Shown in pieces: positions 3,799 to 39,157 of a DNA stretch of 41,399 nucleotides. The notes below the pieces were generated by a model. That model ran no database searches. It saw only the letters and a program-made list of their open reading frames with translations, and was not told the DNA's origin. The number at the start of each line of letters is the position of its first letter. Position 1 is the first letter of the stretch. The DNA is from Microbacteriaceae bacterium UBA963 (GTDB lineage: Bacteria; Actinomycetota; Actinomycetes; Actinomycetales; Microbacteriaceae). The stretch lies in assembly GCA_002292955.1 (NCBI GenBank), contig DBCH01000042.1, positions 537 through 41,935 on the forward strand, given 5' to 3'. Made by a program: the position numbers and the translations under genes.

Positions 3799-3889
3799 GG
3801 GGGTGCTCCTTTCAAGCACCTTTAGACTCACGCACCAATATGTGCGAATGCTATGACAAATCTGAAAGTGCTCTGGGAGTTTATCCGAG

Positions 3890-13083: not shown

Positions 13084-13188
13084 GACGGACTCCTCTATTC
13101 ATACCTGCGCTCGTGACGTGCACCACCGATGGGGTGAAGTGTCAAGCGTAACCGACGAAGGTCGGTCGAGAAAAACACAAAATTGCGC

Positions 13189-14955: not shown

Positions 14956-14964
14956 GCCTCAATG

Positions 14965-22084: not shown

Positions 22085-22094
22085 TGCGACTCTC

Positions 22095-23210
22095 ATGCGC
22101 ATCGGTGTTCCCGCTGAGGTAAAGAACAACGAGTTCCGCGTTGCGCTGACACCGAGCGGTGTGCACGACCTTGCGTTGCACGGCCACGAGGTGACGGTTC
22201 AGTCGGGTGCCGGCATCGGCTCGGGCTTCACCGACGCCGACTTCGTGGAAGCCGGTGGCCGAATCGCGGACGACGTTGCTGCCGTGTGGGACTCCGCCGA
22301 GCTGGTCCTCAAGGTCAAAGAGCCTCAGCCGTCGGAATTCTCCAACCTGCGCGACGACCTCGTGTTGTTTACCTACCTTCATTTGGCCGCCGAGGCCGAA
22401 CTCACCCGAGCGCTGTGTACGGCCGGAACAACGGCACTCGCCTACGAAACCGTGCAGGCCGCCAACGGCACACTTCCCCTATTGGCGCCCATGAGCGAGG
22501 TGGCCGGGCGACTGGCCCCCCTCGTTGGCTCGCATGCCATGCTCGCGCCCCAGGGCGGGCCCGGGCTTCTGGTGTCGGGCGTCCCCGGAACGCACGCCGC
22601 GCACGTGGTGGTGCTCGGGGGTGGCGTGGCCGGAACGAACGCCATTCAAATGGCCGTGGGAATGGGCGCACAGGTGACGGTGCTCGACACCAACCTCGCT
22701 CGACTGGCGCAGCTTGATCTCGCCTTCCATGGCCGCGTCAACACCATCGCGTCGAACGCCCTCGAGATTGAACGCGCGGTGTGTGCGGCCGATCTGGTCA
22801 TCGGCGCCGTACTCATCCCCGGTGCGAAAGCGCCCAAGCTCGTGTCGAACGACCTCGTCGCGCGCATGAAGCCGGGAAGCGTGCTGGTGGACATCGCCGT
22901 GGACCAGGGGGGCTGCTTCGCCGACACCCACCCGACGACCCACGCGGATCCCACCTTCGCGGTGCACGGGTCAATCTTTTATTGTGTGGCCAACATGCCC
23001 GGCGCTGTTCCCCACACCTCAACGCACGCACTGACGAACGCGACCCTGCCGTTCGTGCGCCGGGTGGCAGACCTCGGTTGGCGGGATGCGCTCAGCGAGG
23101 ATGCGGCGTTGCGTTCCGGCCTCAACACGTGGGCCGGGAAGGTCACTAACTCGGCCGTCGCCGAAGCACACGGCATGGCCTTCACCCCGCTGGCCGAGGT
23201 CTTCGGCTAG
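22095..23210 (+). CDS. ald: Alanine dehydrogenase
   Basis: MRIGVPAEVKNNEFRVALTP N-terminus and the NAD fold VVVLGGGVAGTNA. Start at ATG 22095; the track ORF begins earlier, inside gabT. Confidence 0.93.
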   Translation: MRIGVPAEVKNNEFRVALTPSGVHDLALHGHEVTVQSGAGIGSGFTDADFVEAGGRIADDVAAVWDSAELVLKVKEPQPSEFSNLRDDLVLFTYLHLAAEAELTRALCTAGTTALAYETVQAANGTLPLLAPMSEVAGRLAPLVGSHAMLAPQGGPGLLVSGVPGTHAAHVVVLGGGVAGTNAIQMAVGMGAQVTVLDTNLARLAQLDLAFHGRVNTIASNALEIERAVCAADLVIGAVLIPGAKAPKLVSNDLVARMKPGSVLVDIAVDQGGCFADTHPTTHADPTFAVHGSIFYCVANMPGAVPHTSTHALTNATLPFVRRVADLGWRDALSEDAALRSGLNTWAGKVTNSAVAEAHGMAFTPLAEVFG

Positions 23211-25870
23211 GGGCCTGCCGGTAGCGCGGCCCGCACGTAGGAATCATCGGCCTCGAGAACCACAACGCTGTTTTCCAGTGGTGGCGGGATTCGGCGCATG
23301 TCACGTCCCACGTAGCGGGCTGTAATCCGCGCGACGCCGTGCCAGACCAGGGGCTCCTGTCTCACGCGGCGTCTCATCTCGTCAGAGAGCGTGAGGGCTT
23401 GCTCGGGCGTGAGCGCGTGGAGGAGAACTCTTGTTGCAGTGGCCGCCTGATGAGCCGACCACAACTCAGGTTCGTTGGTGAGCACCACTGCTCGACGACC
23501 CTGTAGCACCTCGGACAACGTGGGCAAAAGGTGCGTTCCCGCACGGCCGCGTCGGCCGAGAGAGAGCGCAGAGAGCTCGGCTGGGTCCAGACTCGGCCGC
23601 GTGAGTTGAACCGTGTCACCCCCCATCGCACCGCGTCCGGGATAGCGGGAACCAAGATCGATTCGGGTTCGCACGTGTCGGGTCACCGTACTGAGCGCGG
23701 GCTCATCCCCCGACGTTGAGAACACCAAAAATCTGCCCCGACCGGGACCCTCGCGCGCCACACGCTCGAGAGCCGCAACGAGATCATCGAGTGCGTCGTC
23801 CGGTGTCAACCGCACAATCGCATCGAGCCCGTCGACCACCACCAGTTCCGGTTGGTGGGTGGGGCTCTGGTCACACTCCCGCGCAGCGTTGATGAGGGAA
23901 TCCCACGCGAGTGCAGGATGAACAGGTACGACCAACACTTTTCCTGAGTCTGCCGCGCGTCCCCTGTCGGGTGCGTCCTGATGGCTCAAGCGCCGGTGTG
24001 TCATAGCCTCACGCCTGATGTTCTGAAGCAGGGTCGTTTTTCCCGAACGCGGCCCGCCCACTACCCACAGGGCGCCGTCTCGCTCCGGCAGGTAGTCGAG
24101 CACCGACCAGCGCGTGGTGACGAGATCCTGCCTCAGGCCAAGCAGGAGCCCCTCCGGGCATTCCCCCGCGGAATGGGCAAGGTCGGTTACGGTCGTCTCC
24201 GACAGCTCTTTCGGCAACTCGGGCCACCACAACCGCCAGTCGTCGGCCGGAGCGGCCGCCGTCCACCGGGCAGCCGCCTCAAGAGTCGGCGCATCCACGC
24301 ACACCGGATTAACAGTGTCAATGAGCCCCGACGGTCGGCGCACGTAAAGCAGACGGGGCGTTGACGCAAGATCCGTGGGCGAGCGTTGCACTGTTGCGCC
24401 CAGCAGATAACGAGCATCGTCGTCACCCACGGGAGTCAGGCACAGTCGCGTCTGGGCGTTGACCAGCAGGTCATCTCCAAAGGCGCCGGCCGCCCGCTGG
24501 GTTGCCACGGCGAGATGCACACCGAGAGCGCGACCACGTGAGGCCACATCGGCAGTAATGCGGCGGGCGTCGGGAACAACGTCACACAGTGCGCGAAACT
24601 CGTCAATCACAATCAACAGGCGCGGGATGCGGACCGCGCGGGGCAGAGCGGAAATGTCGGTGCACCCTGCGTCACGCAACACGGTTTCGCGGCGGGCCAT
24701 TTCTGTTCGAATCCCGGCGAGGGCGCGCAGCACGTCATCACCGTCGAGATCCGTGGTGATTCCGGCGTTGTGAGGCAGTGACGCCACGCGGGTGAACCCA
24801 CCTCCGCCCTTGAAGTCGATGACGGCAAATCGAAAGCGCTCGGGCGGGTGTGCTGCGGCCATGCTGGCCAACAGTGCCACGAGCGTCTCGGTCTTACCGC
24901 TACCCGTGGCACCGGCCACGAGCATGTGCGGCACGTCGGTGCTGACCTCGCCCCACACCGGTGTCGGACCAGCGAGAGCATCAGTCCATCCCAGAATGCC
25001 CCTCACGTGACTGTGCTCGGGTCGCGGATCATGCTCATCGGCGCCGGGAGCATCGTTGCTCAACAACTCGACTCCCCTCAACTCGACCGCCGACATTTCG
25101 CCCGTCATCACTTCGCGCAGGTCACTCAGCGTGGGAGACGCGTGGCGAAGAGCGCGGGAGGCCTGGAGTTCGCGTTGGGCGCGGGTAGCGTGCGCCTCGG
25201 AGACTTCATCCACCAAAACGGCAACCGCGTCCAATGGCGTGCGCACATCTGTCAACTCCGCCCACCCCCGCTCCCCCAGTGTCAGTAGCAGCGTTGTATT
25301 CGCGGGAATCTCTGATCGGTGAGTAGCGTGGCTGATACTGCCAACCTCGGCGCCACTTCCGTTCCAGGCCCGGGTGAGGGTCAGGGCCCGGGCGACACGC
25401 TGACGCGCCTCCGGCGGACCCAGAACGCACACGTGTGCGTCGAGAGGAATGAGAACGGGACGTCGGCCCGGATCGAGCCCCACTCGGAAAGCGACCGGAG
25501 CTGCTGGACCCGCCCCGATGTCACGGGCGGCGGGGCGGTGGTGACCGTGGTCGAGGAGGTCCGCCAGGCTGGCATGTTGCCGGCGCGCCCTGCCGGCCTC
25601 CTGCTCGACTTCGTGCGCGCGCTGTTGTTCCGTCTCACGCTGCGCCCGAGTGGCATCCTCGGTTGCCACGCGCTGAGCCGCCCGGCCCTGTCGGCGGGCG
25701 TCAGCCAGAGAAGCCACCATGGCCACCGGGCCCATAAGAGCGAAAAGCATCATCGCCGGCGATGACGACACCCACCACATGACCAGAGCAAAGCCGAGCG
25801 GAACCAACAGCGAGAACAGCGGGACGGGCGTAACGCGAAGACCAGTTTTTCGGGAAGCCTCATGCGTCAT
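23207..25870 (-). CDS. FtsK/SpoIIIE-family membrane ATPase with two P-loop modules (EssC/EccC-like architecture)
   Basis: 887 aa.
- Two N-terminal TM helices (residues about 15-55), then a charged Arg/Glu/Gln-rich segment.
- Module 1: Walker A GATGSGKT (24890-24913) and Walker B LLIVIDEF (24596-24619).
- Module 2: Walker A GGPRSGKTT (24032-24058) and a Walker-B-like ELVVVDGLD (23822-23848) with no Glu after the Asp.
I verified all motif coordinates by back-translation. Confidence 0.85.
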   Translation of the reverse strand: MTHEASRKTGLRVTPVPLFSLLVPLGFALVMWWVSSSPAMMLFALMGPVAMVASLADARRQGRAAQRVATEDATRAQRETEQQRAHEVEQEAGRARRQHASLADLLDHGHHRPAARDIGAGPAAPVAFRVGLDPGRRPVLIPLDAHVCVLGPPEARQRVARALTLTRAWNGSGAEVGSISHATHRSEIPANTTLLLTLGERGWAELTDVRTPLDAVAVLVDEVSEAHATRAQRELQASRALRHASPTLSDLREVMTGEMSAVELRGVELLSNDAPGADEHDPRPEHSHVRGILGWTDALAGPTPVWGEVSTDVPHMLVAGATGSGKTETLVALLASMAAAHPPERFRFAVIDFKGGGGFTRVASLPHNAGITTDLDGDDVLRALAGIRTEMARRETVLRDAGCTDISALPRAVRIPRLLIVIDEFRALCDVVPDARRITADVASRGRALGVHLAVATQRAAGAFGDDLLVNAQTRLCLTPVGDDDARYLLGATVQRSPTDLASTPRLLYVRRPSGLIDTVNPVCVDAPTLEAAARWTAAAPADDWRLWWPELPKELSETTVTDLAHSAGECPEGLLLGLRQDLVTTRWSVLDYLPERDGALWVVGGPRSGKTTLLQNIRREAMTHRRLSHQDAPDRGRAADSGKVLVVPVHPALAWDSLINAARECDQSPTHQPELVVVDGLDAIVRLTPDDALDDLVAALERVAREGPGRGRFLVFSTSGDEPALSTVTRHVRTRIDLGSRYPGRGAMGGDTVQLTRPSLDPAELSALSLGRRGRAGTHLLPTLSEVLQGRRAVVLTNEPELWSAHQAATATRVLLHALTPEQALTLSDEMRRRVRQEPLVWHGVARITARYVGRDMRRIPPPLENSVVVLEADDSYVRAALPAGP

Positions 25871-25906
25871 GCATCGAGGTCACCACGTTGCGAGAGCCCG
25901 ACGCGT

Positions 25907-25922
25907 CGCCTGTCCACAGGCG
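25907..25922 (-). other. GC-rich stem-loop in the 72-nt gap between the Zn-ribbon-FHA gene and the FtsK-like gene
   Basis: CGCCTG TCCA CAGGCG (6-bp stem, tetraloop). It is extendable by GCG/CGC with one bulged T. No T-tract follows on the minus strand. This is the only sizeable non-coding gap inside the nine-gene block. Confidence 0.4.
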
Positions 25923-25942
25923 CGCAGGCTGCAGCGTGCTCG

Positions 25943-26602
25943 TTACTGAACGGTGAAGGACTGGTCGCCGATGCCGACCGAGGCTCCCGGCCTCAGAATC
26001 ACGCGCTCGTGGGGCGCGAGCCGCTCGGCGGCAATTCCCGGCATGCTCACCACGGTGCCGTTGGCACTGTCCAGATCGGTCACCATGAGCCCCTCAGCCA
26101 ATGCCTCAACCCGCAGGTGCGTTTTGGAGACCGTCTTGGACGGGTCGCTCACCACGATGAGGTGATCCCAGGTTTCGTTGGCCGGGGCCACCGGCATGCG
26201 ACCGATAAGCCCCCGCCCCACCACCTGAGCTCGCTCACCGGTACTGAATACGAGCGTGAATGCCGTAGCGACAGCCGCGGGCGTCTCTGTGGGCATCGAT
26301 TCCGACGGCCCGGGCACTGCTACAACTGGCGCGGCTACAACCGGCTCAGCTACAACCGGCTCAGCAATTACCGGGGCAACGGCCACCGGCTCAGCAACCG
26401 CGGCAGCTGCAACCGGCTCAGCAACCACGGGAGTCGCAACCGCAGCTGCGGGAGCACTCGTCGCTGGTGGATCTACTCGTCGAACACTCGTCTCAATCGG
26501 TGAGCCAAACTCGGGAACACTCGCCCCACACTCCCCGCAAAAGTAAGCACCTTCCGGGAGGACTTCCCCACAGACATCACAGGTTGGGTCGCCAGTTGCC
26601 AT
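25943..26602 (-). CDS. Zinc-ribbon + low-complexity (A-E-P-V)n linker + C-terminal FHA domain protein
   Basis: 219 aa. CDVCGEVLPEGAYFCGECG (CxxC-N10-CxxC, 26528-26581). Ala/Pro/Val/Glu linker. FHA signature GRGLIGR..SKTHLRV..VTDLDSANGT. Confidence 0.8.
   Translation of the reverse strand: MATGDPTCDVCGEVLPEGAYFCGECGASVPEFGSPIETSVRRVDPPATSAPAAAVATPVVAEPVAAAAVAEPVAVAPVIAEPVVAEPVVAAPVVAVPGPSESMPTETPAAVATAFTLVFSTGERAQVVGRGLIGRMPVAPANETWDHLIVVSDPSKTVSKTHLRVEALAEGLMVTDLDSANGTVVSMPGIAAERLAPHERVILRPGASVGIGDQSFTVQ
26334..26426 (-). repeat. In-frame short tandem repeats encoding the AEPV linker
   Basis: Perfect 15-bp tandem pair GCTACAACCGGCTCA at 26334-26348 and 26349-26363. Degenerate ACCGGCTCAGCAA copies follow near 26385 and 26412. 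Confidence 0.85.
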
Positions 26603-26615
26603 GACGCCATGTTAC

Positions 26616-28739
26616 TCAGCGACGTGCGCGACGACCAATGAACGACCACAGCGCTAATCGTCGCGCGAGACGCTGTCGACGCGTCAATCCGGTCATCAAC
26701 TCGTTTTCAAGGTCGCTGACAACAAGCCACGCGTTGCGCGCGTCGGCCGCCACGAGAGGATCCGCGGTGTACTCGGCGCGGTCAATGAGGAAAGCCAGTT
26801 GGGGGGCGTCCGGTACCTGAACGTTCGAAACAAGCTCTCGGTTGGTGGTTGACGCCGTCACCACATATCGGGCATCGATGAGCACATCGGCGGCCTGATC
26901 TCGGGCGCCCATGATCCGTTGCCGTGCATTTCCCCCACTCTGCCGCCGCCGACGCCGCCACGCTTTCGCGACCACGATGCACAGGGGAGGCACCATGAGC
27001 AACGCGCCCACGGCAGCGACCCCAGCCAGAGCTCGGAGAATGCCGAAGACGACACCCCACAGAGGATCTGTGTCATCGGTGTCAGCCTCCTCATCTGACT
27101 GTGGGGCCTGCGCGCCCCTAACCTGAGACACATCGGCCGGAGGCGGGTCAACGACCGATTGTGGCGGCGACACCCGATTCGGGTCGTCCGGGGGTGCGTC
27201 CGGGATGGGACGCGACTCGGGAACCGGGTCGATGGCCACCCAGCCGTCACTCGTGTTGACCTCAACCCACGCGCTCAGCTGTGAACCGATGATTTCTGTG
27301 GCGTTCTCGGGGACAACAAAACCCACCGCAACGCGCGCGGGGAATCCCACCTGTTGCGCGAGCAGCGCGGCAGCCACCGAGTACTGCTCGGCGTCGCCAA
27401 TCATGAGTTTGTCGGTGAGCAGCGACGTGATTCGCTCGGCCGAATGCCCGCTTCGTGAGGGCGGCTCGTCGGCTCCGCCATTACTGACATAGCCGTTCTG
27501 GAGGAGTGAGCCGAGCACGGCGACGAGTCGCTCACCGGGTTCTGCCGACGCCTCGCTGTGAGTCGCCACATAGGCCTGCACTCCCGCAGGCTCATCGGTT
27601 ACCACGGTGCGATCCGTGCCCGGCGTGGCGGTGGCCAGTCGGGCGAGATTCGTGGGTTCGATTCCGGGACCGGATACTCGGTACCGGAAACCCTGGGACA
27701 GCCCATTGAGGTCGATGGCGGTTTGCGCCGTGGGGCTGTAGTAGAGCGAGCCGATGCCCGTTCCGTTTGTTTGCATTCCGGCGAGGTCTCCTCGCAGCGG
27801 CAGCCACGGTCCGGTGAGCTGCTCAATCGTGATCTCGGCCGCGTCGGGGTCAACACCGTCGGCCAGGGCGTATCCCGATTGCCGGGTAAAGTCGCCGTCC
27901 GGCGTCCACACCGAATAGCTCACTCCGTCGTAACGCGAGAGCGTGGCAAGGGTCAGCATCTCGCCCGTCGTTGCGTTGGTCACACTGAACATTGGCACCT
28001 CGGCGAGGTCGCCTACTTCGTACGCGCGGAACGCGGAGAGGGGTGAGGGCAGCGAGGCTTCGTCGAGGGTCGGTGACACCCGTGAACGCCAGACTTCGGG
28101 GGGCGCGGTCATCGACAGTGCCACGCCCGCCGCCACAGCACCCACGACAACGGTTGCCCCGATGGCCGTCAGCTTGCGCATCACTCCCCCGGGCGTTGCG
28201 CTCAGCAGCGCCACGAGAACCGTGACAGCGATCAGCGCACCGGATACCACGGCAAAGCGCGGGTCGGCAAGACCGAGCCAGATGGCCACACCGGTCACCG
28301 CAATTCCCGGAACGAGGGCCAACGCGCGCCGGGCAACGGCAGCAGCGAGAACTACCGCCAGTGCCGAGCCGACCAGCGACAGCATGAAGACCGGCACGAG
28401 AAGTGCCCCGAACGAGCCCACGGGTGGCGTAATGGTGACAATCTGCTTCCAGCCCTCAACAGCTCCGAGAAAGAGCGCTTGCTCTCCGCCGAGCGTCGGA
28501 ATGACCCGCCACAGTGCCTGCTGTGGCACGGCGAGGGGTACCCCCGTCACGGCAAAGATCAGCACAAGACCCATGGGCAGTGTCCACCACGGCCACCGAC
28601 GACGCGTCACAATGGCGGCCACTGCGGCTCCCAAGACACTGCCGGCAACAACCGTCACGACAAACTCGGGCGTCTGAAAAACGGGCCACAGCGGTGTCAA
28701 CCCGAGCGCGACCACGAGCACGCCAAACGCGGCCATCAT
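26616..28739 (-). CDS. TgpA-like polytopic membrane protein with extracytoplasmic transglutaminase-fold domain lacking the catalytic Cys and His
   Basis: 707 aa. About 6 N-terminal TM helices, a large loop and one late TM (residues about 560-590). The core region is GDAEQYSVAAALLAQQVGFPARVAVGF..LSAWVEVNTSDGWVAIDP (27228-27398). It aligns with the canonical G-x-C-E-x-[FY]-A..G-I-P-A-R..H-A-W-V-E-V..G-W-x-x-x-D-P, but has Ala at the Cys position and Ser at the His position. The ATGA start overlaps the DUF58 stop. Confidence 0.8.
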   Translation of the reverse strand: MMAAFGVLVVALGLTPLWPVFQTPEFVVTVVAGSVLGAAVAAIVTRRRWPWWTLPMGLVLIFAVTGVPLAVPQQALWRVIPTLGGEQALFLGAVEGWKQIVTITPPVGSFGALLVPVFMLSLVGSALAVVLAAAVARRALALVPGIAVTGVAIWLGLADPRFAVVSGALIAVTVLVALLSATPGGVMRKLTAIGATVVVGAVAAGVALSMTAPPEVWRSRVSPTLDEASLPSPLSAFRAYEVGDLAEVPMFSVTNATTGEMLTLATLSRYDGVSYSVWTPDGDFTRQSGYALADGVDPDAAEITIEQLTGPWLPLRGDLAGMQTNGTGIGSLYYSPTAQTAIDLNGLSQGFRYRVSGPGIEPTNLARLATATPGTDRTVVTDEPAGVQAYVATHSEASAEPGERLVAVLGSLLQNGYVSNGGADEPPSRSGHSAERITSLLTDKLMIGDAEQYSVAAALLAQQVGFPARVAVGFVVPENATEIIGSQLSAWVEVNTSDGWVAIDPVPESRPIPDAPPDDPNRVSPPQSVVDPPPADVSQVRGAQAPQSDEEADTDDTDPLWGVVFGILRALAGVAAVGALLMVPPLCIVVAKAWRRRRRQSGGNARQRIMGARDQAADVLIDARYVVTASTTNRELVSNVQVPDAPQLAFLIDRAEYTADPLVAADARNAWLVVSDLENELMTGLTRRQRLARRLALWSFIGRRARR

Positions 28740-29956: not shown

Positions 29957-29974
29957 CAGAAAGCCTGGGCTTGC

Positions 29975-30955: not shown

Positions 30956-30983
30956 GGTGCATATTCTCTTCTGCTGAGGGCGG

Positions 30984-33900
30984 TTATTCGCCGAAGGTGG
31001 GTACGGGAATCGTGGCCGAGCCGCCGGCGGCGCCGCAGACGCCCTCGGCCGTGCAACCGCGAATGGTGATGGTGAACGGATTGGCGAGGTCGCCGGTGGG
31101 GGCATCAAACGTGAACGAACTGGCGGTGGCAACGTCGGCGACGAGATCGAACCAGCTGGCGCCGATCTGAACTTGCCAGACCGCCACAAGCGCTGCGGCG
31201 CGATCGACCGTGGGAGACACCACGGTTATTCGTGTCGTGCTCGCGTCGAGCGCGGTGAGGGTTGCCTCTCCGTAGGAGGCGGTACCGGGAACCGTCGTGA
31301 CCGTGACACTCGTGACGTCGCCGGCGCATCCCCACGGGGTGACCGCATAGACGGCGAACCAGTAGGTGCCGTCGGCCAACGGCTCGGAATCGCTCCAGGT
31401 GGTGGCCGTCGTGGACGCGGTGGCACCGGTCGCGGGGTCGGCGGGACACGAGGCTGACACCTCACTCGAACTGCGCCACACGTAGTAGACGGGTGCCTCC
31501 GGTGCGCCGCGCCTGTCGGCTGCCGACCACGACAGGTTCATTCCCGACGCATCCGCGCTGAGCCCCCCGCCCCACACCGGCGGGCCGGCGGCCGTCACCG
31601 TGGCCGACGTCTGCCAGTTCCAATCGAGAGTGTCTGAATCGTTGACAGCGGCGACGCGCACCGAGTACGCCGAACCCGCTCGACCCCAGTAGGTGGGAAT
31701 CGACGTGTCGCTCGCGGCCGCCCGCAGGTCGGCGATCAACCCACCGTCCTCGTAAATCTCAACGCGGTAGCCATTCACGGCGCTCGCCCCCGTGGGCGCG
31801 GAAACGGCTGCCCACGACACGTCGATACCGCCACCCGCCGGTCGGGCGCTGTTGTAGTTGACCCTCGACACCGTGACCTCGGCGGGAGCGGGCGGCGAGC
31901 GGTCCGCACCCAGCGGTTCGCTCCATGGACTCGGCGCCGACGTACCCACACCGTTAATCGCGACCACCTGGAAGCGGTACTTGGCTCCCGTGGGCAGTCC
32001 GTCCAGGGTGCACACGGTTGCCGCGCACGTGCGGGTGTAGCCGCCGTCACTGGTCACGACATACTCGGTTATCGGAGAATTGTTTCCCGCGGGAGCCGCC
32101 CAGCTCAGCGTCAGCTCACCGTTCACAAAGCCCGCGGCGCGCACGGGCACCGTGGGCGAATCCGGAACATCCTGGATTGCGATCGTCACCACGCCCCACG
32201 AGTAGCGATCAGGATCGTTGGTGGCATCGGCCACTTCGTACTGCAGGGTGACGTCTGCCGCTCGGGCAGACTCGGCCACCACCACGTTGAGTCGGGACTT
32301 GTCCGGTGAGGGCAACACCGTGACGCCCTCGGGCAGATCGGCCGTATCCGTGCCGCGAACCGCGATGACCCGCAGTGGCGTGTTGGGGAACGGGTTGGTG
32401 GCCTGATCATTGGCGAGCACGTCCACTTCGACCGCCGAGCCGCGACGAACCGTTGCGGTGTCGGACTGCGGAACGGCGAGCGGCCGCGTCGACGGCACAA
32501 TCGCGATGAGCACGGTACCCGCCTTTCCCTCGCTCACCGCATCGGACGGTGTCACCTCGAGGGCGAGGGTGGATCCCTTCACGGCCCCCGGCGCTGCCGT
32601 GATGGTGAGGTTTGTCCCCTCAATGCGTGTCGTGACGCCCTCGGTGGAGCCGCGCAGGCGGAACGTCAGCTCGCCAACGTTCTTGGCGTAGGGGTAACGG
32701 GTAATCTTCACCAGATCGATTTCTTTGGTCGAATCCGGCTCAAGATCAATCTGGGTGTCCTGAAGCACCGGCGGTTGGTTGCCACGCGGCGTGACCACGA
32801 TGGGTAACACAATCACCGCGCGACGACCCTCGGGATCATCGACACTCGAACCGTCGGTGACCTCGAACGAGAGAGACGCGGGACCAAAATAGAGATTCTC
32901 GCTGGTGTACTCAACCGTTCGGTCATCAATCACCAGCTGGTCGCCATTGGCGTGCGTGGCCCGAACCGTGTCGTTCGACGTGAGACGCACCTGCTTGCCC
33001 CCGGCGGCCGTGACGTAGTCGTTGATGTTGATGCGCACCGTTTTCTCGCTCGCGACCGTAATGGGGTCGACTCCCAGTTTCACCTGCGGCCGCGCATCGT
33101 CGGTGCCGGGAACCCAGACAAACGCGTACGACACGATGGACGGATCATCGGGGTGGGTGACGCTAAAGGGAATCACCTGAGATTTCTGACCCACCGTGAC
33201 ACGAATCTTGTTGCCCGATTCAACCCGGGCATTCCCGGGATATCCGGCCACGATGCTCGGGGTGAGCGTGCGAACATCGCCATCCGCCCAGAAGGCGTTG
33301 GCGAGCGGATCCACGACAACCTCGCTGCGCGTGAGAATCTCGGTGAGGGCCACCACGCTGTCGCTCAGCACGGGAGCGTTGAGGGGCGCATCGCTGCGCA
33401 CGTCTAGCGTGATGAAGCTCGAGGCCGTCCCCGCCACATCGTTGGAAATTTCATAGATCAGCCCGTACGTGCCCGGCTGATCGGGCACCATGATGAAGAC
33501 CTGGTTTGCCAGGATTTCTGCCGTGATTCCCGGAGTGGTGGGTTCAACCGAGGTGATGGTGAGCGGACGACGTCCCGGGTCGCTGTCGTTGGCCAACGGA
33601 TCAACCACGATGGTGCGCCCCGGTCGCACCACTACGGCGTCGGGCGCCGCCGAGGGCGACGTTGACCCTGTGGCCACGGAGGCGATGCCCACGCGGATGA
33701 CCCCGCTGGCCTCCGCTCCGAATCCGTCGAGGACGGAGTACAAGAACACGTCTGTTTCCGTTGCATACGGACCGGCCTCGTACTCTATCCAGTCGGCACC
33801 CACCGCGGTCACGGCACCCTTGGTGGGATTCGAGGCCAGACCTGCGAGCTGAACGTTGTCGCCATCAGGGTCAGCTTTGGCCAGCGGCAGGGGAATGCGA

Positions 33901-36590
33901 ACCGTCGTGCCGGCTACCACCCGCGCGGTCACGTCAAGGGGCTGCGGCGCACGATTGCTCGCCGCATCGCGCGGTCGCACCGTGATAGTCACGACGCCCG
34001 TGGCCCACGCACCGTTATCGGCAATAACGCGATACGCCGCCGAATAGGTTCCCGCCTGTTCCGGGGCGAGGTAGCGAAGTTGTTGTGCCGTGGCAAACAG
34101 GAGACCGGCGCCCGCGGGAACCTGCTGATCGAGCTGCGGGGCAAGCGTCAGCACTCCGCCCGACGGATGCACATCGTTGGCGAGCACGGGAATATCAACC
34201 ACGTTCCCCGCACGAACCGTGGCGGCATCGGGAACGGCAATGGGCGGCAACGCTAGGGTCGGCGCGGCAGCCTCAACGACAGCGACCTGACCATCCGCCG
34301 AGGCGACACCGTTTGACACCCGGTAAGAGATTACGTGCACCCCGGCGAGGGGTCGCAACAGTGTGACGCGAATGAGGTGGTAGTCCACAACCTCGGCGCG
34401 CACATCCGCGGTGTTTCCTCCCGACGTGAGTCCGGTGACCACCAGGACACCCCCGCCGGGATCAACGTCCGTCGCGGTCACGTCCACCGTTCGCGTCTGC
34501 TGCAGACCCACCACGACCTGATGGGGTGCGGTGAGCGGCACCGAGTTCGCGCTGGGGCGCTCCACGACGTCGACCCGCACGAGACCCGAGCCGTTGCTGC
34601 GACCGTCGCTCACGGCGTACGTGACGTAGTAGGTGCCAAGCCGAGAGGGCGTGATCGAAAACGTGAAGTCGTCAAACTGCGGGACGATGTCGAGTCCCCG
34701 AACGCTCGGTACGCCCGTGAGGCTCACGGCGCTCGCGCCACCGCGCACGCGATCTGCGGGAGATACCGTGAGCGCTTCGTTGGGATAGGCCAACACGGCA
34801 AAAGCATCCGCCCGAAGCCCCACAGCCGAACCCGGCTTGACGGCTACTGTCACGGCACCGAAGCCGCTGGCAAGGCCGTCTGACACTTCGAGATCGATGC
34901 GCGCCGTGGTGCTCGCCGCACCCGAGTCAATAAACGACAGCCTGCCCCCCGGGGTAAAGCTGACCACCCCACCCGATGTCGTGCTCGCTTGCGCCAAGTG
35001 GATCGGATCGCCATCGGGGTCAATCCAGTCGCCGAGCACGCTGAGGGTGGCCTGCCCCCCGGACGCCACTTCGGCCTCCGTTTGACGCACCTGCTGCGGA
35101 GGAGAATTCTCTTGCGCGCCCCGCACGGTGACCGAAACAACAGCACTCGCCGTGCCGCCGCGTCCGTCATCGATGGTGTAGCTAAAGTCCACGACGCCCG
35201 ACGCGTCGGCGCTCAGTGCGAGGCGCACCGAGGTTCGGTCCGGCGCGATATCTACCGTGGCCTGAGGACTCGATGGAGGTGAGACGGCGGTCACCACGAG
35301 CACGTCACCGTTGGGGTCAAAGTCGTTGAGGAGCACGGGCAAGAACGTGACGCGCTCGGCGCGGGCGCCAAAAGCATCGTCTCGGGCAACCGGAGGTTGC
35401 GGCAACGGATCGAGGGTTTCGGTTCCCGTGTCGTCGGACACCACCGTTTGCTCCGTGGTTTGTTCGCTCAACAAATCGTCCCAGTTGTCGATGAGATGAA
35501 CACCGTCCTGGAGTGTCCACGAGGCCCCCGACGCTGTGTCGTTGAGCGCCAGCACACCGCCGCGCTCACGAATCTGCAGTTGCGCCCCGGAGTTCATTCC
35601 GTCGGCGTCGATATTCGACGCCACCATGCCCGGGCACTGCGAGAAGACGGTGCCCTGCGACCACGCCGCGAAGAGGCAGCCGTCCTGCTCGCGCGGCGCG
35701 GCGGGTCGACCCAGCGCCTCCTGCTCAATAATCGGGGTGACCTTTCCGCCGAGGGACACCCGGACCAAACCGTCGGCGAAGGCGATCGTCGCCTCGGTGG
35801 CAGTGCGCGACGGTTGAGCGAGCACCCCCTGAGTCGGAGTAATCGAGCTGTCTGCCAGGTTCACCTCGCGCCCGGGAAGAAAGAGATAACCCGCCGTGGG
35901 GTCGAGAACGGCCCACGCGCTGCCGACCACCGTGACACCGACCTGCTCGGCAGAGAGGGTCCGGGAAAGTGACTCGATCCGGGGCGGCGCGGCCTGTGAC
36001 ACGTCGACCGTGGTCACCGAGGAGTCTGCGACGCTCACCCCCACGAGGAGGCCACCGGGTTCGACCGCGATCTGCGACTTTGGTCCCACCGAGAAGCGGG
36101 CAGGAGCGCGCGCGTCAAACGAGTCGATCGACTTGAGGGGCACCACCCACACATCGCCCGTCTCCGCGGCGTGGGCCACCACAAAGTCATTGGTGAGCAC
36201 GACATCGGTGGCGCCGGCCGGAAGAGCCACGGGAGTCATCAGCGTGTTGGTGCGCTCGTCTACCGGCGTAATTGTGTGCTTGGCATCGTCGATGAGGAAG
36301 GCCGCCGTGGGTGACTGCAGTACGTCGATCAGGTCGGTCTGGGCCGCAACGATGCTGCCGAGTTCCTGGATGCGCGTGTTGGCCCGACCGAGAGCCTCCC
36401 GATCCGCGCTGGTGACCCACACCGCGCCGTCGGTGGCATTCACTCGGGCCGCGGTGAAACCGGAAGCCAGCACAATGCCGGCAATCAGTGCCACGACAGC
36501 CACAATCGCCACGACAACGGGAAGAAGAACGCGGACCCGTCTCACGGCCGGGCCTGCAGCGCCGCTCACGCTCGACCTCGCCGACGCCAC
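30984..36590 (-). CDS. Giant (1868 aa) N-terminally membrane-anchored surface protein
   Basis: - Short basic N-terminus and one TM helix (VLLPVVVAIVAVVALIAGIVLA, 36459-36530).
- An N-terminal region of about 350 aa with no motif I recognise.
- About 11 Ig/cadherin-like repeats of about 98 aa each carrying (V/L)L-x-N-D-x-D-P-x-G-like motifs (LLNDFDPNGD, VLGDWIDPDGD, VLANDVHPSGG, PLANDSDPGRR, VLANDQATNP).
- C-terminal FN3 signatures (LTLSWAAP..ITEYVV..YRFQVVAINGVG; IDVSWAAV..GYRVEIY..YSVRVAAVN; NLSWSAA..YYVW..YWFAVYAV).
- No LPXTG.
GTG start at 36590, or the GTGA-coupled GTG at 36569. Confidence 0.85.
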   Translation of the reverse strand: MASARSSVSGAAGPAVRRVRVLLPVVVAIVAVVALIAGIVLASGFTAARVNATDGAVWVTSADREALGRANTRIQELGSIVAAQTDLIDVLQSPTAAFLIDDAKHTITPVDERTNTLMTPVALPAGATDVVLTNDFVVAHAAETGDVWVVPLKSIDSFDARAPARFSVGPKSQIAVEPGGLLVGVSVADSSVTTVDVSQAAPPRIESLSRTLSAEQVGVTVVGSAWAVLDPTAGYLFLPGREVNLADSSITPTQGVLAQPSRTATEATIAFADGLVRVSLGGKVTPIIEQEALGRPAAPREQDGCLFAAWSQGTVFSQCPGMVASNIDADGMNSGAQLQIRERGGVLALNDTASGASWTLQDGVHLIDNWDDLLSEQTTEQTVVSDDTGTETLDPLPQPPVARDDAFGARAERVTFLPVLLNDFDPNGDVLVVTAVSPPSSPQATVDIAPDRTSVRLALSADASGVVDFSYTIDDGRGGTASAVVSVTVRGAQENSPPQQVRQTEAEVASGGQATLSVLGDWIDPDGDPIHLAQASTTSGGVVSFTPGGRLSFIDSGAASTTARIDLEVSDGLASGFGAVTVAVKPGSAVGLRADAFAVLAYPNEALTVSPADRVRGGASAVSLTGVPSVRGLDIVPQFDDFTFSITPSRLGTYYVTYAVSDGRSNGSGLVRVDVVERPSANSVPLTAPHQVVVGLQQTRTVDVTATDVDPGGGVLVVTGLTSGGNTADVRAEVVDYHLIRVTLLRPLAGVHVISYRVSNGVASADGQVAVVEAAAPTLALPPIAVPDAATVRAGNVVDIPVLANDVHPSGGVLTLAPQLDQQVPAGAGLLFATAQQLRYLAPEQAGTYSAAYRVIADNGAWATGVVTITVRPRDAASNRAPQPLDVTARVVAGTTVRIPLPLAKADPDGDNVQLAGLASNPTKGAVTAVGADWIEYEAGPYATETDVFLYSVLDGFGAEASGVIRVGIASVATGSTSPSAAPDAVVVRPGRTIVVDPLANDSDPGRRPLTITSVEPTTPGITAEILANQVFIMVPDQPGTYGLIYEISNDVAGTASSFITLDVRSDAPLNAPVLSDSVVALTEILTRSEVVVDPLANAFWADGDVRTLTPSIVAGYPGNARVESGNKIRVTVGQKSQVIPFSVTHPDDPSIVSYAFVWVPGTDDARPQVKLGVDPITVASEKTVRININDYVTAAGGKQVRLTSNDTVRATHANGDQLVIDDRTVEYTSENLYFGPASLSFEVTDGSSVDDPEGRRAVIVLPIVVTPRGNQPPVLQDTQIDLEPDSTKEIDLVKITRYPYAKNVGELTFRLRGSTEGVTTRIEGTNLTITAAPGAVKGSTLALEVTPSDAVSEGKAGTVLIAIVPSTRPLAVPQSDTATVRRGSAVEVDVLANDQATNPFPNTPLRVIAVRGTDTADLPEGVTVLPSPDKSRLNVVVAESARAADVTLQYEVADATNDPDRYSWGVVTIAIQDVPDSPTVPVRAAGFVNGELTLSWAAPAGNNSPITEYVVTSDGGYTRTCAATVCTLDGLPTGAKYRFQVVAINGVGTSAPSPWSEPLGADRSPPAPAEVTVSRVNYNSARPAGGGIDVSWAAVSAPTGASAVNGYRVEIYEDGGLIADLRAAASDTSIPTYWGRAGSAYSVRVAAVNDSDTLDWNWQTSATVTAAGPPVWGGGLSADASGMNLSWSAADRRGAPEAPVYYVWRSSSEVSASCPADPATGATASTTATTWSDSEPLADGTYWFAVYAVTPWGCAGDVTSVTVTTVPGTASYGEATLTALDASTTRITVVSPTVDRAAALVAVWQVQIGASWFDLVADVATASSFTFDAPTGDLANPFTITIRGCTAEGVCGAAGGSATIPVPTFGE
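32169..35402 (-). repeat. Protein-level tandem array of about 11 Ig/cadherin-like modules of about 98 aa within the giant gene
   Basis: Module starts are near residues 397, 496, 588, 682, 781, 879, 979, 1070, 1167, 1270 and 1369. Each opens with a Pro-rich P-x-A/V-x-D segment followed by an N-D-x-D-P-type motif. The copies are divergent and there is no long DNA identity, so the array is ancient rather than recent. Confidence 0.6.
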
Positions 36591-37528
36591 GGTCGGCGTC
36601 GATAGGGAACAACGTCGGCGAGCTGCGTTTCACCCCCGGAGGGGGCAAGGGCATCTAGGTAAACGGGAACATCAATCTGTGTTTGCGCGATGCCCAGCTC
36701 CGCCTCGACCGCTTGCAGATCTCGCGCAAACGCCAACGCCGACAGTGGTCGCGTGAGCGGATCCAGGGACAGGCTGCGCGTCAGCAATTGACGCAGGGAG
36801 TCGGGCACATCCACCCGGTCGATGTCGGCGGGCTTGCCCTTGAGGATGCGCCCCGCAATGACACCGGGCGCGTTGTCGCGACCGGTGCGCTCGAACGGTG
36901 TGCGCTGCGCGAGCAGCGAGTACAGGGTGGCCGCCAGAGAGAAGATATCGGTGGCAACGGTGCCCGTGGTGTCCTGCGAGATGATCTCCGGTGCCGACCA
37001 CGGCACACTCAGGCCCTGCGCATCGCCGCGGTCCGAGGCAGCCACCGTGGCGGCAATACCAAAGTCACTCAGCACCGCGTGCCCGTAGGTGGTGAAGAGA
37101 ATGTTGGCCGGTTTGAGGTCCCGATGCAGCACATTGGATCGGTGGGCGGTCTCGAGTGCCGAGGCCATGCGCACTCCCGTACGCAGCACCTCGGGCACCG
37201 AAATGCGCGCCGTGCGATACGTGTCCCCGTAGCCGGACGGACAGTACTCCATGACGAGGTAGAGCCGTCCGTCGGCCGCCACCCCAGCGTCGAAGACGGT
37301 GAGGATGGCGGGATGTGTGCTCACGTGTGCCATAAGACGAGACTCGGCCACGAACATTTGAGTTGCCCGTGGATTTACCGTATCCGAGAGGAGAACTTTG
37401 ACCGCAACCTGACGGCGCGGGAGGTCCTGCTCGTAGAGAAACACGTCGGCAAAACCGCCCGAGCCGAGGGCTCGGACAAACGAAAACCCGCTGAGAACCG
37501 GAGGCTCGGTGGGAATGCGCCGGGCCAT
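36566..37528 (-). CDS. Hanks-type Ser/Thr protein kinase, catalytic domain only (no TM or sensor domain)
   Basis: LGSGGFADVF Gly-loop, VAVKVL Lys, HRDLKPANILF, DFGIA and SAPE. The C-terminal tail is short and basic. Start at ATG 37528 (4 nt after the PP2C stop) or GTG 37546 (14-nt overlap). The stop overlaps candidate starts of the giant gene. Confidence 0.9.
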   Translation of the reverse strand: MARRIPTEPPVLSGFSFVRALGSGGFADVFLYEQDLPRRQVAVKVLLSDTVNPRATQMFVAESRLMAHVSTHPAILTVFDAGVAADGRLYLVMEYCPSGYGDTYRTARISVPEVLRTGVRMASALETAHRSNVLHRDLKPANILFTTYGHAVLSDFGIAATVAASDRGDAQGLSVPWSAPEIISQDTTGTVATDIFSLAATLYSLLAQRTPFERTGRDNAPGVIAGRILKGKPADIDRVDVPDSLRQLLTRSLSLDPLTRPLSALAFARDLQAVEAELGIAQTQIDVPVYLDALAPSGGETQLADVVPYRRRPWRRRGRA

Positions 37529-37532
37529 GGGA

Positions 37533-38372
37533 CTATCCCGTCTCACCGGGCGGGGTCACGGCGAGCACGTCGATTACAACGACGGTGATGTTGTCGCGCC
37601 CACTGTTGCTGAGCGCGTTCTTGAGGAGCTCGTGAGCGGCCTCCTCGGCCGTGGCGGTCGTGACGAGAAAGTGTTCAATGCCCACATCGGTAATTTCTTT
37701 GGTGAGCCCATCAGTACACAGCAACACGCGCGACGCTGGCACGAGCGGAAAGGTCGAAAACTCGGGCACCGGGGGTTCCATGAGCCCGACGGCACGCGTG
37801 ATCACATTTGCGTGCGGGTGAATGTCCGCTTCGTCGCGCGTGATTGAACCGGCATCCACCAGCTGTTGCACCACGGAGTGGTCGCGAGTCAGTTGCTCGA
37901 GAACGCCGTCGACGAGACCGTAAACCCGAGAATCACCGATATTAAACACCGCCCACTCCAGGCCACCTTCGGCGAGCACCAGTGCCGCACCGGTCACTGT
38001 CGTGCCGGCCGACCGCTGTGCGTCGCTGACCTGAGCGCCCAAGTCGGACACGGCCCGCTCGAGCGCCGGCTGGACATCGTCGATATTGGCAAAACCGTCG
38101 CTCTGCAGCTCCGCCAGTCGCGAGACCACTGCGCCGCTGGCGATATCACCCGCCGAGTGTCCGCCCATGCCGTCGGCCACCGCAAAAACGGGACACGCAG
38201 CCACAAAGCTGTCTTCGTTGGCCGAGCGGTGCAGTCCCACATCGGTGGCTACGGCCCACGAGATCGTGACGGTGGCGCCGGTAACGGAGTCGCGCACGGT
38301 GTGCCCCGTGGTGTTGACTCCGATAGCGGTCACGACTCGATACTCCCCTGCAAATAGGTTTCCCCGCTGCAC
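37533..38372 (-). CDS. PP2C-family Ser/Thr phosphatase
   Basis: NEDSF, AVADGMGGHSAGDIAS, NIGDSRVY, LLCTDGL and GRDNITVVVIDV. The GTG start at 38372 lies 5 nt after the FHA gene stop. The exact start is uncertain because several in-frame GTGs follow. Confidence 0.9.
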   Translation of the reverse strand: MQRGNLFAGEYRVVTAIGVNTTGHTVRDSVTGATVTISWAVATDVGLHRSANEDSFVAACPVFAVADGMGGHSAGDIASGAVVSRLAELQSDGFANIDDVQPALERAVSDLGAQVSDAQRSAGTTVTGAALVLAEGGLEWAVFNIGDSRVYGLVDGVLEQLTRDHSVVQQLVDAGSITRDEADIHPHANVITRAVGLMEPPVPEFSTFPLVPASRVLLCTDGLTKEITDVGIEHFLVTTATAEEAAHELLKNALSNSGRDNITVVVIDVLAVTPPGETG

Positions 38373-38377
38373 GGGCC

Positions 38378-39046
38378 TCAGATCTGAGAGTGCGACCGAG
38401 CGGGGATAACCATAATTCTACCGCTGTGCCCAAATTCCACGGTCGCCTCGCCGGTCGTTGTGTAGGTCTCCCGCGGACCGAGACGACGCGGGGTCTGACC
38501 GGGCACGCGAACGCGCGTTCCATTGGCCGACCCGAGGTCGGTTATGACGACTCCAGCGCCCGTCTGTTCCAGCATCAGGTGAGACGCCGACACTTCGCGA
38601 TCATCTCCCGGCCACGACAGCAAGAGCACGCGTTCTTGGGGTCCGAGGGGTGTGCGGGGAGCACGTCCCAACACAATGGGGCGATGCAGGGTGAACTCTT
38701 GGCCACCGGGTTCCCGCAAGCGGGCGCAGGTCTCGGGGTCCGGGGCAGTCGAGATGCGGGGAACGACGCGAACATCGGTGAGGTCGTCGACCGGTTGAGC
38801 TGTTCCCGCGGGTGCTCCCACAACGACAGTGGACTCTTCGATGATGACGGTGTCGTCACCAGCGGCTATCCGCGTCTGATCGTCACGCAGGGTCGTGATG
38901 TCGCGCACGGTGTCGTCCGCAACGATCAAGCGGGTCGTTTCTGCGCTCAGGCGGGTCGTTTCTGCGCTCAGTAGCGTCGCGTCATCCAGATCGTCATCCA
39001 GGCCGTCATCCAGCTCGTAATCTGCCCCGTTATCCGCCATGTGCAT
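38378..39046 (-). CDS. FHA-domain protein with acidic, Thr-containing N-terminal region
   Basis: 222 aa. N-terminus DYELDDGLDDDLDD, then a duplicated LSAETTR. C-terminal FHA signature VLGRAP..SASHLMLE..VITDLGSANGTRV. First gene of the block. Start at ATG 39046 or ATG 39040. Confidence 0.8.
   Translation of the reverse strand: MHMADNGADYELDDGLDDDLDDATLLSAETTRLSAETTRLIVADDTVRDITTLRDDQTRIAAGDDTVIIEESTVVVGAPAGTAQPVDDLTDVRVVPRISTAPDPETCARLREPGGQEFTLHRPIVLGRAPRTPLGPQERVLLLSWPGDDREVSASHLMLEQTGAGVVITDLGSANGTRVRVPGQTPRRLGPRETYTTTGEATVEFGHSGRIMVIPARSHSQI
38930..38971 (-). repeat. Perfect in-frame 21-bp tandem duplication (two copies) in the FHA gene
   Basis: GCGGGTCGTTTCTGCGCTCAG occurs at 38930-38950 and again at 38951-38971 with no mismatch. 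It encodes LSAETTR twice. Confidence 0.95.
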
Positions 39047-39052
39047 ACTTTA
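39047..39052 (-). promoter_or_regulatory. Candidate -10 hexamer (TAAAGT) for a leaderless transcript of the nine-gene block
   Basis: On the minus strand TAAAGT abuts ATG 39046 and ends 6 nt before the second ATG (39040). No SD is present upstream of either ATG. Confidence 0.3.
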
Positions 39053-39073
39053 TGTTGTGGGGTCGCCCGCATG

Positions 39074-39093
39074 TTTATTTGCTTGCCAACACG
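39074..39093. promoter_or_regulatory. Palindrome TGCCAA-N8-TTGGCA in the divergent intergenic region (candidate operator)
   Basis: Exact 6-bp inverted arms at 39074-39079 and 39088-39093. They lie within the 111-nt gap between the FHA gene and the aminotransferase gene. Confidence 0.25.
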
Positions 39094-39157
39094 CGGCTTG
39101 GCAGAATCAAGGGGGAAGCAAACGGCCCCCGACAACAACGCGGGCCGACGGAGAGAT

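Follow-up and report, generated by a model that had tools for sequence, protein, structure and literature searches.

Nine consecutive minus-strand genes (23207–39046), assigned from the open reading frame (ORF) listing, Pfam and NCBIfam, lie within a 41,399-nucleotide stretch of contig DBCH01000042.1 (positions 537–41,935, referred to throughout as the window and numbered from its first letter) of Microbacteriaceae bacterium UBA963. They encode an FHA-domain protein (FHA protein 1), a PP2C phosphatase, a Hanks-type kinase, a giant surface protein of immunoglobulin-like (Ig) and fibronectin type III (FN3) repeats, a MoxR-type AAA+ ATPase, a DUF58 membrane protein, a TgpA-like protein with a transglutaminase-like domain (TGM), a Zn-ribbon–FHA protein and an FtsK-like ATPase. 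The block is a real, strongly conserved feature, and its family is already described twice, as the PFNA operon of Bifidobacterium and as the Esr (epibiont sensing and response) pathway of Schaalia odontolytica, with experimental characterization between 2018 and 2026. The two names, PFNA and Esr, appear to stand for one system. We consider it likely that the block constitutes an envelope pathway of the Esr (PFNA) type that senses threats and is linked to an EccC-like ATPase. A first-pass annotation, made from the sequence by itself, had called the block uncharacterized and knew of no functional study of it, a view overtaken by the PFNA work (PMC8430577) and the Esr preprint (PMC13622651). Its mention of similar bifidobacterial neighbourhoods is borne out by the homologous core of the PFNA operon, and its general idea, a surface protein and a secretion-type ATPase linked to Thr-phospho-signalling, was right.

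The Esr pathway was defined by genetic and phosphoproteomic evidence as one that senses parasitic Patescibacteria and controls Esx secretion (Wang et al., bioRxiv 9 Sept 2026; PMC13622651). Its filament, EsrA, has a Sec signal, an N-terminal WD40-class β-propeller, 14 Ig-like repeats and no LPXTG motif, and is accompanied by a MoxR protein, a vWA protein, the kinase EsrE and the phosphatase EsrF (PMC13622651). EsrD is a predicted transglutaminase whose deletion releases EsrA into the supernatant, and EsrG is an FHA output protein with Thr phosphorylation in a disordered region that depends on EsrA (PMC13622651). The preprint reports 3502 pathways, of which ~40% adjoin esx genes and which are often linked or fused to EccC; it distinguishes 13 EsrG architectures, including zinc fingers and EccC fusions, and proposes post-translational control of secretion for Esr2 (PMC13622651). 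The PFNA operon reads pkb2-fn3-aaa-atp-duf58-tgm, with prpC, fha and a hypothetical gene as optional members; in B. longum GT15 the eight genes are transcribed together, the Pkb2 kinase phosphorylates the MoxR ATPase in vitro, and FN3 binding assays have been done (PMC8430577). Earlier accounts hold PFNA to be confined to bifidobacteria ('no orthologues in other organisms') and to sense host cytokines.

We compared all window proteins with two Bifidobacterium loci (L083 and L084) by tblastn. Against L083, the giant aligns at 29% identity over 1654 aa (E 1e-149), MoxR at 57% to the aaa-atp product, DUF58 at 32% over 399 aa, the TGM at 26% over 717 aa and the kinase at 39%; the PP2C matches the gene directly after tgm (prpC) at 32%. 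The B. adolescentis TGM, translated from the supplement of PMC8430577, gives 27% over 529 aa (E 7e-30) with its window counterpart. The bifidobacterial FN3 proteins measure ~1950–2030 aa and, like the giant, carry two FN3 domains close to residue 1500. The proposed genus restriction of PFNA fails: at least 557 Microbacteriaceae stretches encode a TGM relative, and blocks also occur in Demequina, in Georgenia and, partially, in Isoptericola. A PFNA homologue in a free-living bacterium thus contradicts both the restriction to bifidobacteria and a general host-cytokine function.

The genome scan behind this count was seeded with an alignment of TgpA-like homologues, and 80 of the at least 557 matching stretches were kept as loci. 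Nearly all 80 are labelled Microbacteriaceae or one of its genera, a few bear only a higher-rank name (Actinomycetota or Actinomycetales), and a single one is assigned to Acidobacteria. The closest two are freshwater Microbacteriaceae metagenome-assembled genomes (MAGs) from Lake Mendota (97% identity) and Loclat (94%). Homologues proved syntenic rather than scattered, which settles a check across related genomes that had been proposed beforehand: kinase, giant, MoxR, DUF58 and TGM genes keep this order in all 51 Microbacteriaceae loci with ~10 kb of upstream flank, and the PP2C and first FHA genes are found upstream wherever the flank extends far enough. Among the 65 loci with at least 4.2 kb of downstream flank, an FHA gene directly follows the TGM gene in 57, and in 51 the TGM gene is followed by both FHA and FtsK-like genes, the latter coding for 700 aa or more. 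An FtsK-like remnant of 280–337 aa is left in five (all Frigoribacterium), and the remaining nine (Leifsonia, Curtobacterium and others) have no FtsK-like gene. Protein identity among loci is ~35% for the TGM and ~42% for the giant, with MoxR at ~65–75% within the family, and the genes flanking the block vary between genomes. That the order is kept despite these low identities and changing flanks indicates that it is under selection and that the block has defined ends. The block is nearly universal in the Microbacteriaceae, a family of free-living bacteria, and occurs also in soil, plant and glacier genera without an animal host.

Two observations from this survey stand apart. The contig labelled Acidobacteria (L052, from a MAG named 'Acidobacteria bacterium') holds a typical Microbacteriaceae-type block with 35% TGM identity, and its label is probably a binning error. 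In the Frigoribacterium loci (L027, L039, L043, L065 and L076, at ~12200–15100), the FHA gene after the TGM gene is enlarged to ~600–670 aa, and the 280–337-aa ORF is only weakly similar to the FtsK-like protein; the ATPase of this genus looks decayed or remodelled.

The giant is differentiated into an N-terminal transmembrane (TM) segment or signal anchor, a β-propeller, 11 Ig repeats, at least two FN3 domains (~residues 1490–1650, Pfam) and a C-terminal region of ~220 aa. Hydropathy predicts a single N-terminal TM, modelled by AlphaFold2 (AF2) as a helix at residues 17–41, and inspection of the C terminus finds no LPXTG motif. The N-terminal 400 aa have no match in Pfam or PDB sequence searches. 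An exhaustive HMMER search with the N-terminal domain gathered 558 cluster representatives, and in those of full length (~1900–2100 aa) the domain is likewise N-terminal. An AF2 model built with 31 of the 558 (pLDDT 88, pTM 0.80) consists of a TM helix followed by ~28 strands. All Foldseek matches to it in the PDB are β-propellers, the best being the YVTN propeller of an archaeal S-layer protein (1L0Q). The giant N terminus therefore models as a seven-bladed propeller, the presumed ligand-sensing tip, and the whole as an N-terminally anchored or secreted filament in which the propeller precedes ~13 Ig/FN3 domains. This N-terminal domain diverges fast (22–40% identity); over 1705 aa, the giant is 33% identical to its Georgenia relative.

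The TgpA-like protein has ~6–7 N-terminal TMs plus one at residues 572–590 (hydropathy), and aligning it with Pseudomonas aeruginosa TgpA (6G49) fixes the active-site register. At the catalytic Cys position it has Ala ('GDAEQY'), and the catalytic His is replaced by Ser ('SAWVEV') or Thr; the Asp is kept. Catalytic Cys and His are missing from every one of the 240 TGM/EsrD homologues retrieved (120 Microbacteriaceae-type and 120 Bifidobacterium), the Cys site being Ala, Gly, Gln or Glu in the former and Ser in the latter. The TgpA-like protein is a polytopic membrane pseudo-enzyme whose transglutaminase-fold domain is extracytoplasmic. Because both residues are lost, covalent cross-linking by the TGM is unlikely in these two lineages.

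The neighbouring DUF58 protein, which we take to be vWA-like from its Pfam clan membership, begins with a TM hairpin (hydropathy). Its metal ion-dependent adhesion site (MIDAS) position (residues ~231–241) reads 'LLDTRLE' and not DxSxS. This position varies widely among orthologues, so that metal-dependent ligand binding is doubtful. MoxR and DUF58 form a cytoplasmic AAA+/vWA-like pair. Three Bifidobacterium proteins (P0143, P0144 and P0145; ~1214–1221 aa) contain DUF58 and Transglut_core in one fusion-like chain. The fusions may be genuine, hinting at physical interaction, or may be artefacts of single-base frameshifts where the two genes overlap by ATGA.

The FtsK-like ATPase is composed of two TMs, a stalk domain, a first P-loop domain (D1), a degenerate second one (D2) and a small C-terminal α/β domain, without fused FHA domains and without a full third domain (D3). 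Its closest PDB relatives by sequence are EccC from T. curvata (4NH0, 5.7e-37), EccC5, YukB and EssC, and an AF2 model (pLDDT 79.7) again finds EccC 4NH0 as the best Foldseek match (6.5e-27). Walker A, Walker B (DE) and QR motifs of D1 are invariant in 20 homologues. In D2, the Lys is replaced by Arg in 6 of these 20, and the catalytic Glu is missing. Judged by these motifs, D1 is active and D2 degenerate. We rejected a DNA-translocase or conjugation FtsK, since the FtsK motor is a far poorer match than EccC in both sequence (4e-11 versus 5.7e-37) and structure (6e-16 versus 6.5e-27); Pfam finds no FtsK gamma or winged helix-turn-helix domain in the ATPase, which has tandem P-loop domains instead of a single motor.

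Distant homologues of the ATPase are FHA–EccC fusions of 1450–1550 aa. The window protein is collinear with their TM, stalk, D1 and D2 regions, minus a ~230-aa FHA region and ~450 C-terminal residues, and the Zn-ribbon–FHA gene occupies the position of the FHA domains in these fusions of other genera. In Georgenia the locus runs PP2C, FHA protein, kinase, giant, MoxR, DUF58, TgpA and FHA–EccC fusion, which is the window order with the last two genes fused. The Demequina block adjoins a WXG100-containing locus, and Isoptericola has giant, PP2C, kinase and FHA–EccC genes beside WXG100, with no MoxR–DUF58–TGM genes within the stretch read. Curtobacterium has an Esr block without the ATPase and a separate FHA/WXG100/T7SS_signal/EssC-like locus. 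The proteins beside FHA–EccC that Pfam assigns to WXG100 (L085 18291–18587; L086 6248–6541; L088 14596–14889) have 'DGF', 'SGY' or 'SGF' at the turn and not W-x-G, which is reminiscent of the FXG variant described for AesB in the Esr preprint. L086 and L087 also contain a trio of genes for proteins of 180–220 aa.

Within the window, a hidden Markov model of six WXG-like proteins from related loci found no WXG100-like ORF at E <= 10 among ORFs of at least 50 aa. EccB/D/E, MycP and EsaA/EssA/EssB are absent from the Pfam matches of the 29 longer window ORF proteins. A complete ESX or T7SSb locus was therefore rejected for this window, which has neither a WXG100-like ORF nor the core components.

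Kinase and PP2C keep intact catalytic motifs by sequence, the kinase having HRD, DFG and APE. In the window and its nearest relative (L005, 1196–2161) the kinase is 321–326 aa long and has no TM, finishing in an Arg-rich tail just where a TM would begin. Aurantimicrobium-type genomes encode a 368-aa form with a C-terminal tail anchor (L002, 969–2075), and most Microbacteriaceae encode ~475–526 aa with a TM and a ~90-aa ectodomain containing two Cys (L017, 292–1725); the family shows a stepwise reduction across the Microbacteriaceae.

Both FHA proteins retain the phosphothreonine-binding residues. FHA protein 1 pairs an acidic, Thr-rich, disordered N terminus with a C-terminal FHA domain bearing the canonical GR/SxxH/NGT residues. 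A recent 21-bp tandem duplication (38926–38971, 96% identical) in its gene encodes 'SAETTRL' twice. GarA/OdhI-type proteins carry ETTS phospho-acceptor motifs, and by analogy the repeat is plausibly a phospho-acceptor segment, perhaps a duplicated motif. The Zn-ribbon–FHA protein consists of a CxxC...CxxC ribbon, a Pro/Ala/Val-rich linker and an FHA domain. Since the linker is encoded by imperfect 27–30-bp tandem repeats (26319–26442), its length is probably variable between strains.

Features of the nine-gene block in the window (positions of the whole stretch).
Feature	Position	Strand	Size, assignment and evidence
FHA protein 1	38378-39046	-	222 aa; EsrG-like; Pfam FHA
PP2C Ser/Thr phosphatase	37533-38372	-	279 aa; EsrF-like; PP2C_2 2.6e-12, Stp1-type 4.4e-58
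Hanks-type Ser/Thr kinase	36566-37546	-	326 aa; EsrE/Pkb2-like; Pkinase 2.9e-40
Giant surface protein	30984-36590	-	1868 aa; EsrA/FN3-like; Big_9/Cadherin_4/fn3; Big_9 5.4e-57 (Pfam)
Seven-bladed β-propeller domain of the giant	35490-36425	-	residues ~56-367; AF2 + Foldseek
Eleven tandem Ig-like (Big_9/Cadherin_4) repeats of the giant	32172-35396	-	residues 399-1473; iterated self-profile search
MoxR-type AAA+ ATPase	29975-30955	-	326 aa, ATG start; AAA_3 7e-63 + AAA_lid_2 (Pfam)
DUF58 (vWA-like) membrane protein	28736-29956	-	406 aa; DUF58 4.7e-12 (Pfam)
TgpA-like polytopic pseudo-transglutaminase	26616-28739	-	707 aa; EsrD/TGM-like; TgpA_N + Transglut_core (Pfam)
Zn-ribbon–FHA protein	25943-26602	-	219 aa; EsrG-like output or adaptor; Pfam
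FtsK-like = EccC/EssC-like ATPase	23207-25870	-	887 aa; FtsK_SpoIIIE (Pfam); EssC/EccC sub-threshold (NCBIfam)
Divergent intergenic region, presumed promoter	39047-39156	.	between FHA protein 1 gene and class-III aminotransferase gene

Pfam and NCBIfam confirm all ORFs and domains of the nine-gene list in the first-pass annotation, together with their order and strand. The eight junction distances, recomputed from the coordinates, all match, as does the operon-like packing: +5, −14 (+4 from an internal ATG), −25 (or −4), +28, +18, −4 (ATGA), +13 and +72. The longest MoxR ORF extends to 31189, and the version in the table starts at the ATG. The first-pass claim that the block has no internal terminator holds in substance: a scan gave 16 weak consensus matches, near the chance expectation (10.7 ± 3.9), all inside coding sequence and none in any of the eight junctions. 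Four membrane-embedded products (giant, DUF58, TgpA-like and FtsK-like) had been proposed, and hydropathy supports the same four. The pseudo-transglutaminase call stands, given the Cys and His replacements relative to 6G49, as does that of an EssC/EccC-like FtsK protein with FHA encoded in trans, which matches EccC in sequence and structure; the stated lack of WXG100 and Ecc core genes agrees with the window ORFs.

The sole sizeable non-coding gap at the 5′ end of the block is 39047–39156. A scan of 22000–40500 found no sigma-70 promoter match, the consensus being uninformative for an actinobacterium of 64% GC. The block is bordered by a convergent alanine dehydrogenase gene on one side and a divergent class-III aminotransferase gene on the other. 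At 23207–23210 the FtsK-like (−) and alanine dehydrogenase (+) genes share 4 nt at their stop codons, leaving no space for a terminator in between. The remainder of the window is housekeeping (nusA, infB, rbfA, truB, ribF, proS, ispG, rseP and dxr). It also contains an HtrA-like trypsin/PDZ protease gene (2362–3936) with an upstream 340-aa ORF carrying a PKD domain (3890–4912), an exported pair that appears unrelated to the block.

How an Esr-type pathway of this composition might operate can be sketched from the known systems. The propeller tip of the filament would detect a surface event, such as an epibiont, another cell or a phage. The TgpA-like protein would hold the filament at the membrane, probably non-covalently because its Cys–His dyad is lost, and the MoxR/DUF58 pair may set or reset the conformation of the membrane complex. 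The kinase, countered by the PP2C, would phosphorylate Thr in disordered regions, for example the ETTRL repeats of FHA protein 1, and the FHA proteins would read these phospho-Thr marks. The Zn-ribbon–FHA protein could then either gate the adjacent EccC-like ATPase, as proposed for Esr2, or act on transcription via its zinc ribbon. A narrower version, which we put forward as tentative and somewhat doubtful, is that the Microbacteriaceae sensor is hard-wired to a two-domain EccC-like ATPase without a canonical type VII apparatus, that the TGM is an obligate pseudo-enzyme scaffold and that PFNA is the same microbe-sensing pathway. The ATPase may, if so, be an FHA-gated motor exporting a non-WXG effector, or a signalling ATPase.

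Several points weigh against an Esr-type pathway joined to an EccC-like ATPase. Membership in Esr rests on architecture and on homology to PFNA and other actinobacterial loci, not on direct comparison with Schaalia, and the main text of the Esr preprint names neither Microbacteriaceae nor Bifidobacterium (PMC13622651). A TgpA-like protein without a Cys–His dyad is at odds with the covalent-anchoring step proposed for EsrD, and a kinase without a TM is hard to connect to a surface signal. The window has no WXG100 or type VII core gene, and its ATPase has no full D3. The epibiont as ligand would be an extrapolation from oral Schaalia.

The block might instead be a general sensor of envelope integrity or cell-wall homeostasis that monitors the cell's own wall, its Thr-phospho-relay adjusting wall synthesis, as in MoxR–DUF58 operons linked to envelope defects. 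Its location in the housekeeping chromosome core, among nusA-infB-rbfA-truB, dxr, ispG and proS, would suit this, as would near-universal presence in a whole family of free-living bacteria and the cell-wall polysaccharide genes in the Schaalia Esr1 regulon (PMC13622651). We judge it unlikely nonetheless: propeller and filament diverge fast (22–40% against ~65–75% for MoxR) and PFNA genes are reported to evolve under positive selection (PMC6803598), a pattern typical of molecules facing other organisms, the Schaalia response discriminates two epibiont species (PMC13622651), and linkage to type VII-like secretion loci recurs. Host-cytokine sensing, the PFNA model, has the FN3 domains of the giant mimic a cytokine receptor, bind TNF-α or IL-8 and signal via the kinase. 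The block is homologous to PFNA, with FN3 domains at the same position (~1490–1650), and recombinant bifidobacterial fragments bind TNF-α in vitro (PMC10688814, PMC12607495). The window, however, comes from a freshwater lake MAG, and the block is kept in soil, plant and glacier genera that have no animal host. As a general function this model is contradicted by the distribution and is highly improbable here; at most, gut bifidobacteria could have put the system to such a use secondarily, in their own lineage.

A phosphorylation-gated, ATP-driven machine that exports, assembles or remodels the giant or the envelope, driven by the EccC-like ATPase and MoxR and with the giant as cargo, was the reading favoured by the first-pass annotation. 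This reading fits the tight packing of two ATPases and four membrane proteins into a single operon; loss of EsrD frees EsrA in Schaalia, so that part of the block serves surface retention of the filament, and MoxR proteins are assembly chaperones (PMC12067865). The giant, however, has its own N-terminal hydrophobic signal or anchor, which suggests Sec-dependent export. Of 65 Microbacteriaceae loci, 14 have no FtsK-like gene or only a remnant of one, and the Bifidobacterium loci lack it too, yet all of these keep giant, MoxR, DUF58 and TGM. The FHA–EccC proteins of other genera sit beside WXG100-type substrates, pointing to small helical substrates and not an 1868-aa filament, and the homologous Schaalia filament is a phospho-relay sensor, not cargo. 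Export of the giant is thus the weaker reading, and a distinctly unlikely one.

Beyond the literature, our data add the apparent identity of PFNA and Esr, the presence of the system in free-living freshwater bacteria, the pseudo-enzyme TGM (240 of 240) and a truncated EccC-like ATPase without type VII partners in the window. The window contributes a free-living freshwater member with a split Zn-ribbon–FHA and short EccC-like output, and supports treating PFNA of probiotic bifidobacteria and Esr of oral Actinomycetales as one system. If this is true, the view of PFNA as a cytokine receptor must be reconsidered; the abundant Microbacteriaceae of freshwater, where Patescibacteria are common too, would be candidates for hosts or targets of epibionts; and the loss of Cys and His in 240 homologues argues against covalent filament anchoring in these lineages. 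The short EccC-like ATPase with a separate FHA gene would also offer a simpler setting for FHA gating of type VII-type ATPases.

Compared with known systems, the ATPase resembles type VII EccC/EssC/YukB in its two N-terminal TMs, stalk and tandem FtsK-like P-loop domains, and firmicute EssC in its association with FHA, which is here encoded by a separate gene; unlike EccC/EssC, it has two and not three full ATPase domains. The MoxR, DUF58 and TgpA_N/Transglut_core genes follow the same order as the P. aeruginosa tgpA locus. The Cys–His–Asp triad of TgpA (6G49) is broken in the window protein, however (Cys to Ala, His to Ser/Thr), and unlike in the tgpA locus or other MRP-type MoxR operons, the triad of genes sits among kinase, phosphatase, FHA, filament and EccC genes. 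A MoxR and vWA-like pair tied to sensor and kinase/FHA modules recalls the MoxR–vWA ternary conflict systems, which occasionally include FtsK-like domains; both are proposed to gate a biological-conflict response (Kaur, Burroughs, Iyer, Aravind, eLife 2020; PMC7159879). A VMAP/iSTAND ternary system (PMC7159879) was rejected, the block lacking a VMAP/iSTAND component as well as fused effector or toxin domains; in Pfam the window MoxR matches generic AAA_3 much more strongly than bpMoxR, and the Esr authors state that their own clusters went undetected in the ternary-system study (PMC13622651). A known anti-phage defence system was likewise rejected, PADLOC giving only generic kinase (mad6, PD-T4-6) and FtsK-domain (mad8, SspH) matches and no signature protein.

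The window differs from PFNA in placing PP2C and FHA upstream of the kinase, where Bifidobacterium has PP2C after tgm, and in its Zn-ribbon–FHA and EccC-like genes, which the Bifidobacterium loci lack. Shared with PFNA are five core genes in identical order on one strand, each product homologous over its full length, the 4-nt DUF58/tgm overlap, PP2C and FHA accessory genes, the loss of transglutaminase Cys and His, and a giant of ~1900–2030 aa with two FN3 domains near residue 1500. Relative to Esr, the window has two FHA proteins, neither with the EsrG1 pseudophosphatase N-domain, a kinase without a TM and a TGM without Cys and His, all in a free-living freshwater organism; its ATPase is short (887 aa) and stands by itself, the 41 kb containing neither esx substrate nor esx core genes. 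Common to the window and Esr are a propeller/Ig filament without LPXTG, MoxR, a vWA-like protein, a transglutaminase-like protein, kinase, phosphatase and an FHA protein with a disordered Thr region. Genetic linkage to EccC is a further shared trait: the Zn-ribbon–FHA protein parallels the zinc-finger EsrG variants, and the Georgenia FHA–EccC fusion that replaces the last two genes of the window resembles the EsrG–EccC fusions of Esr.

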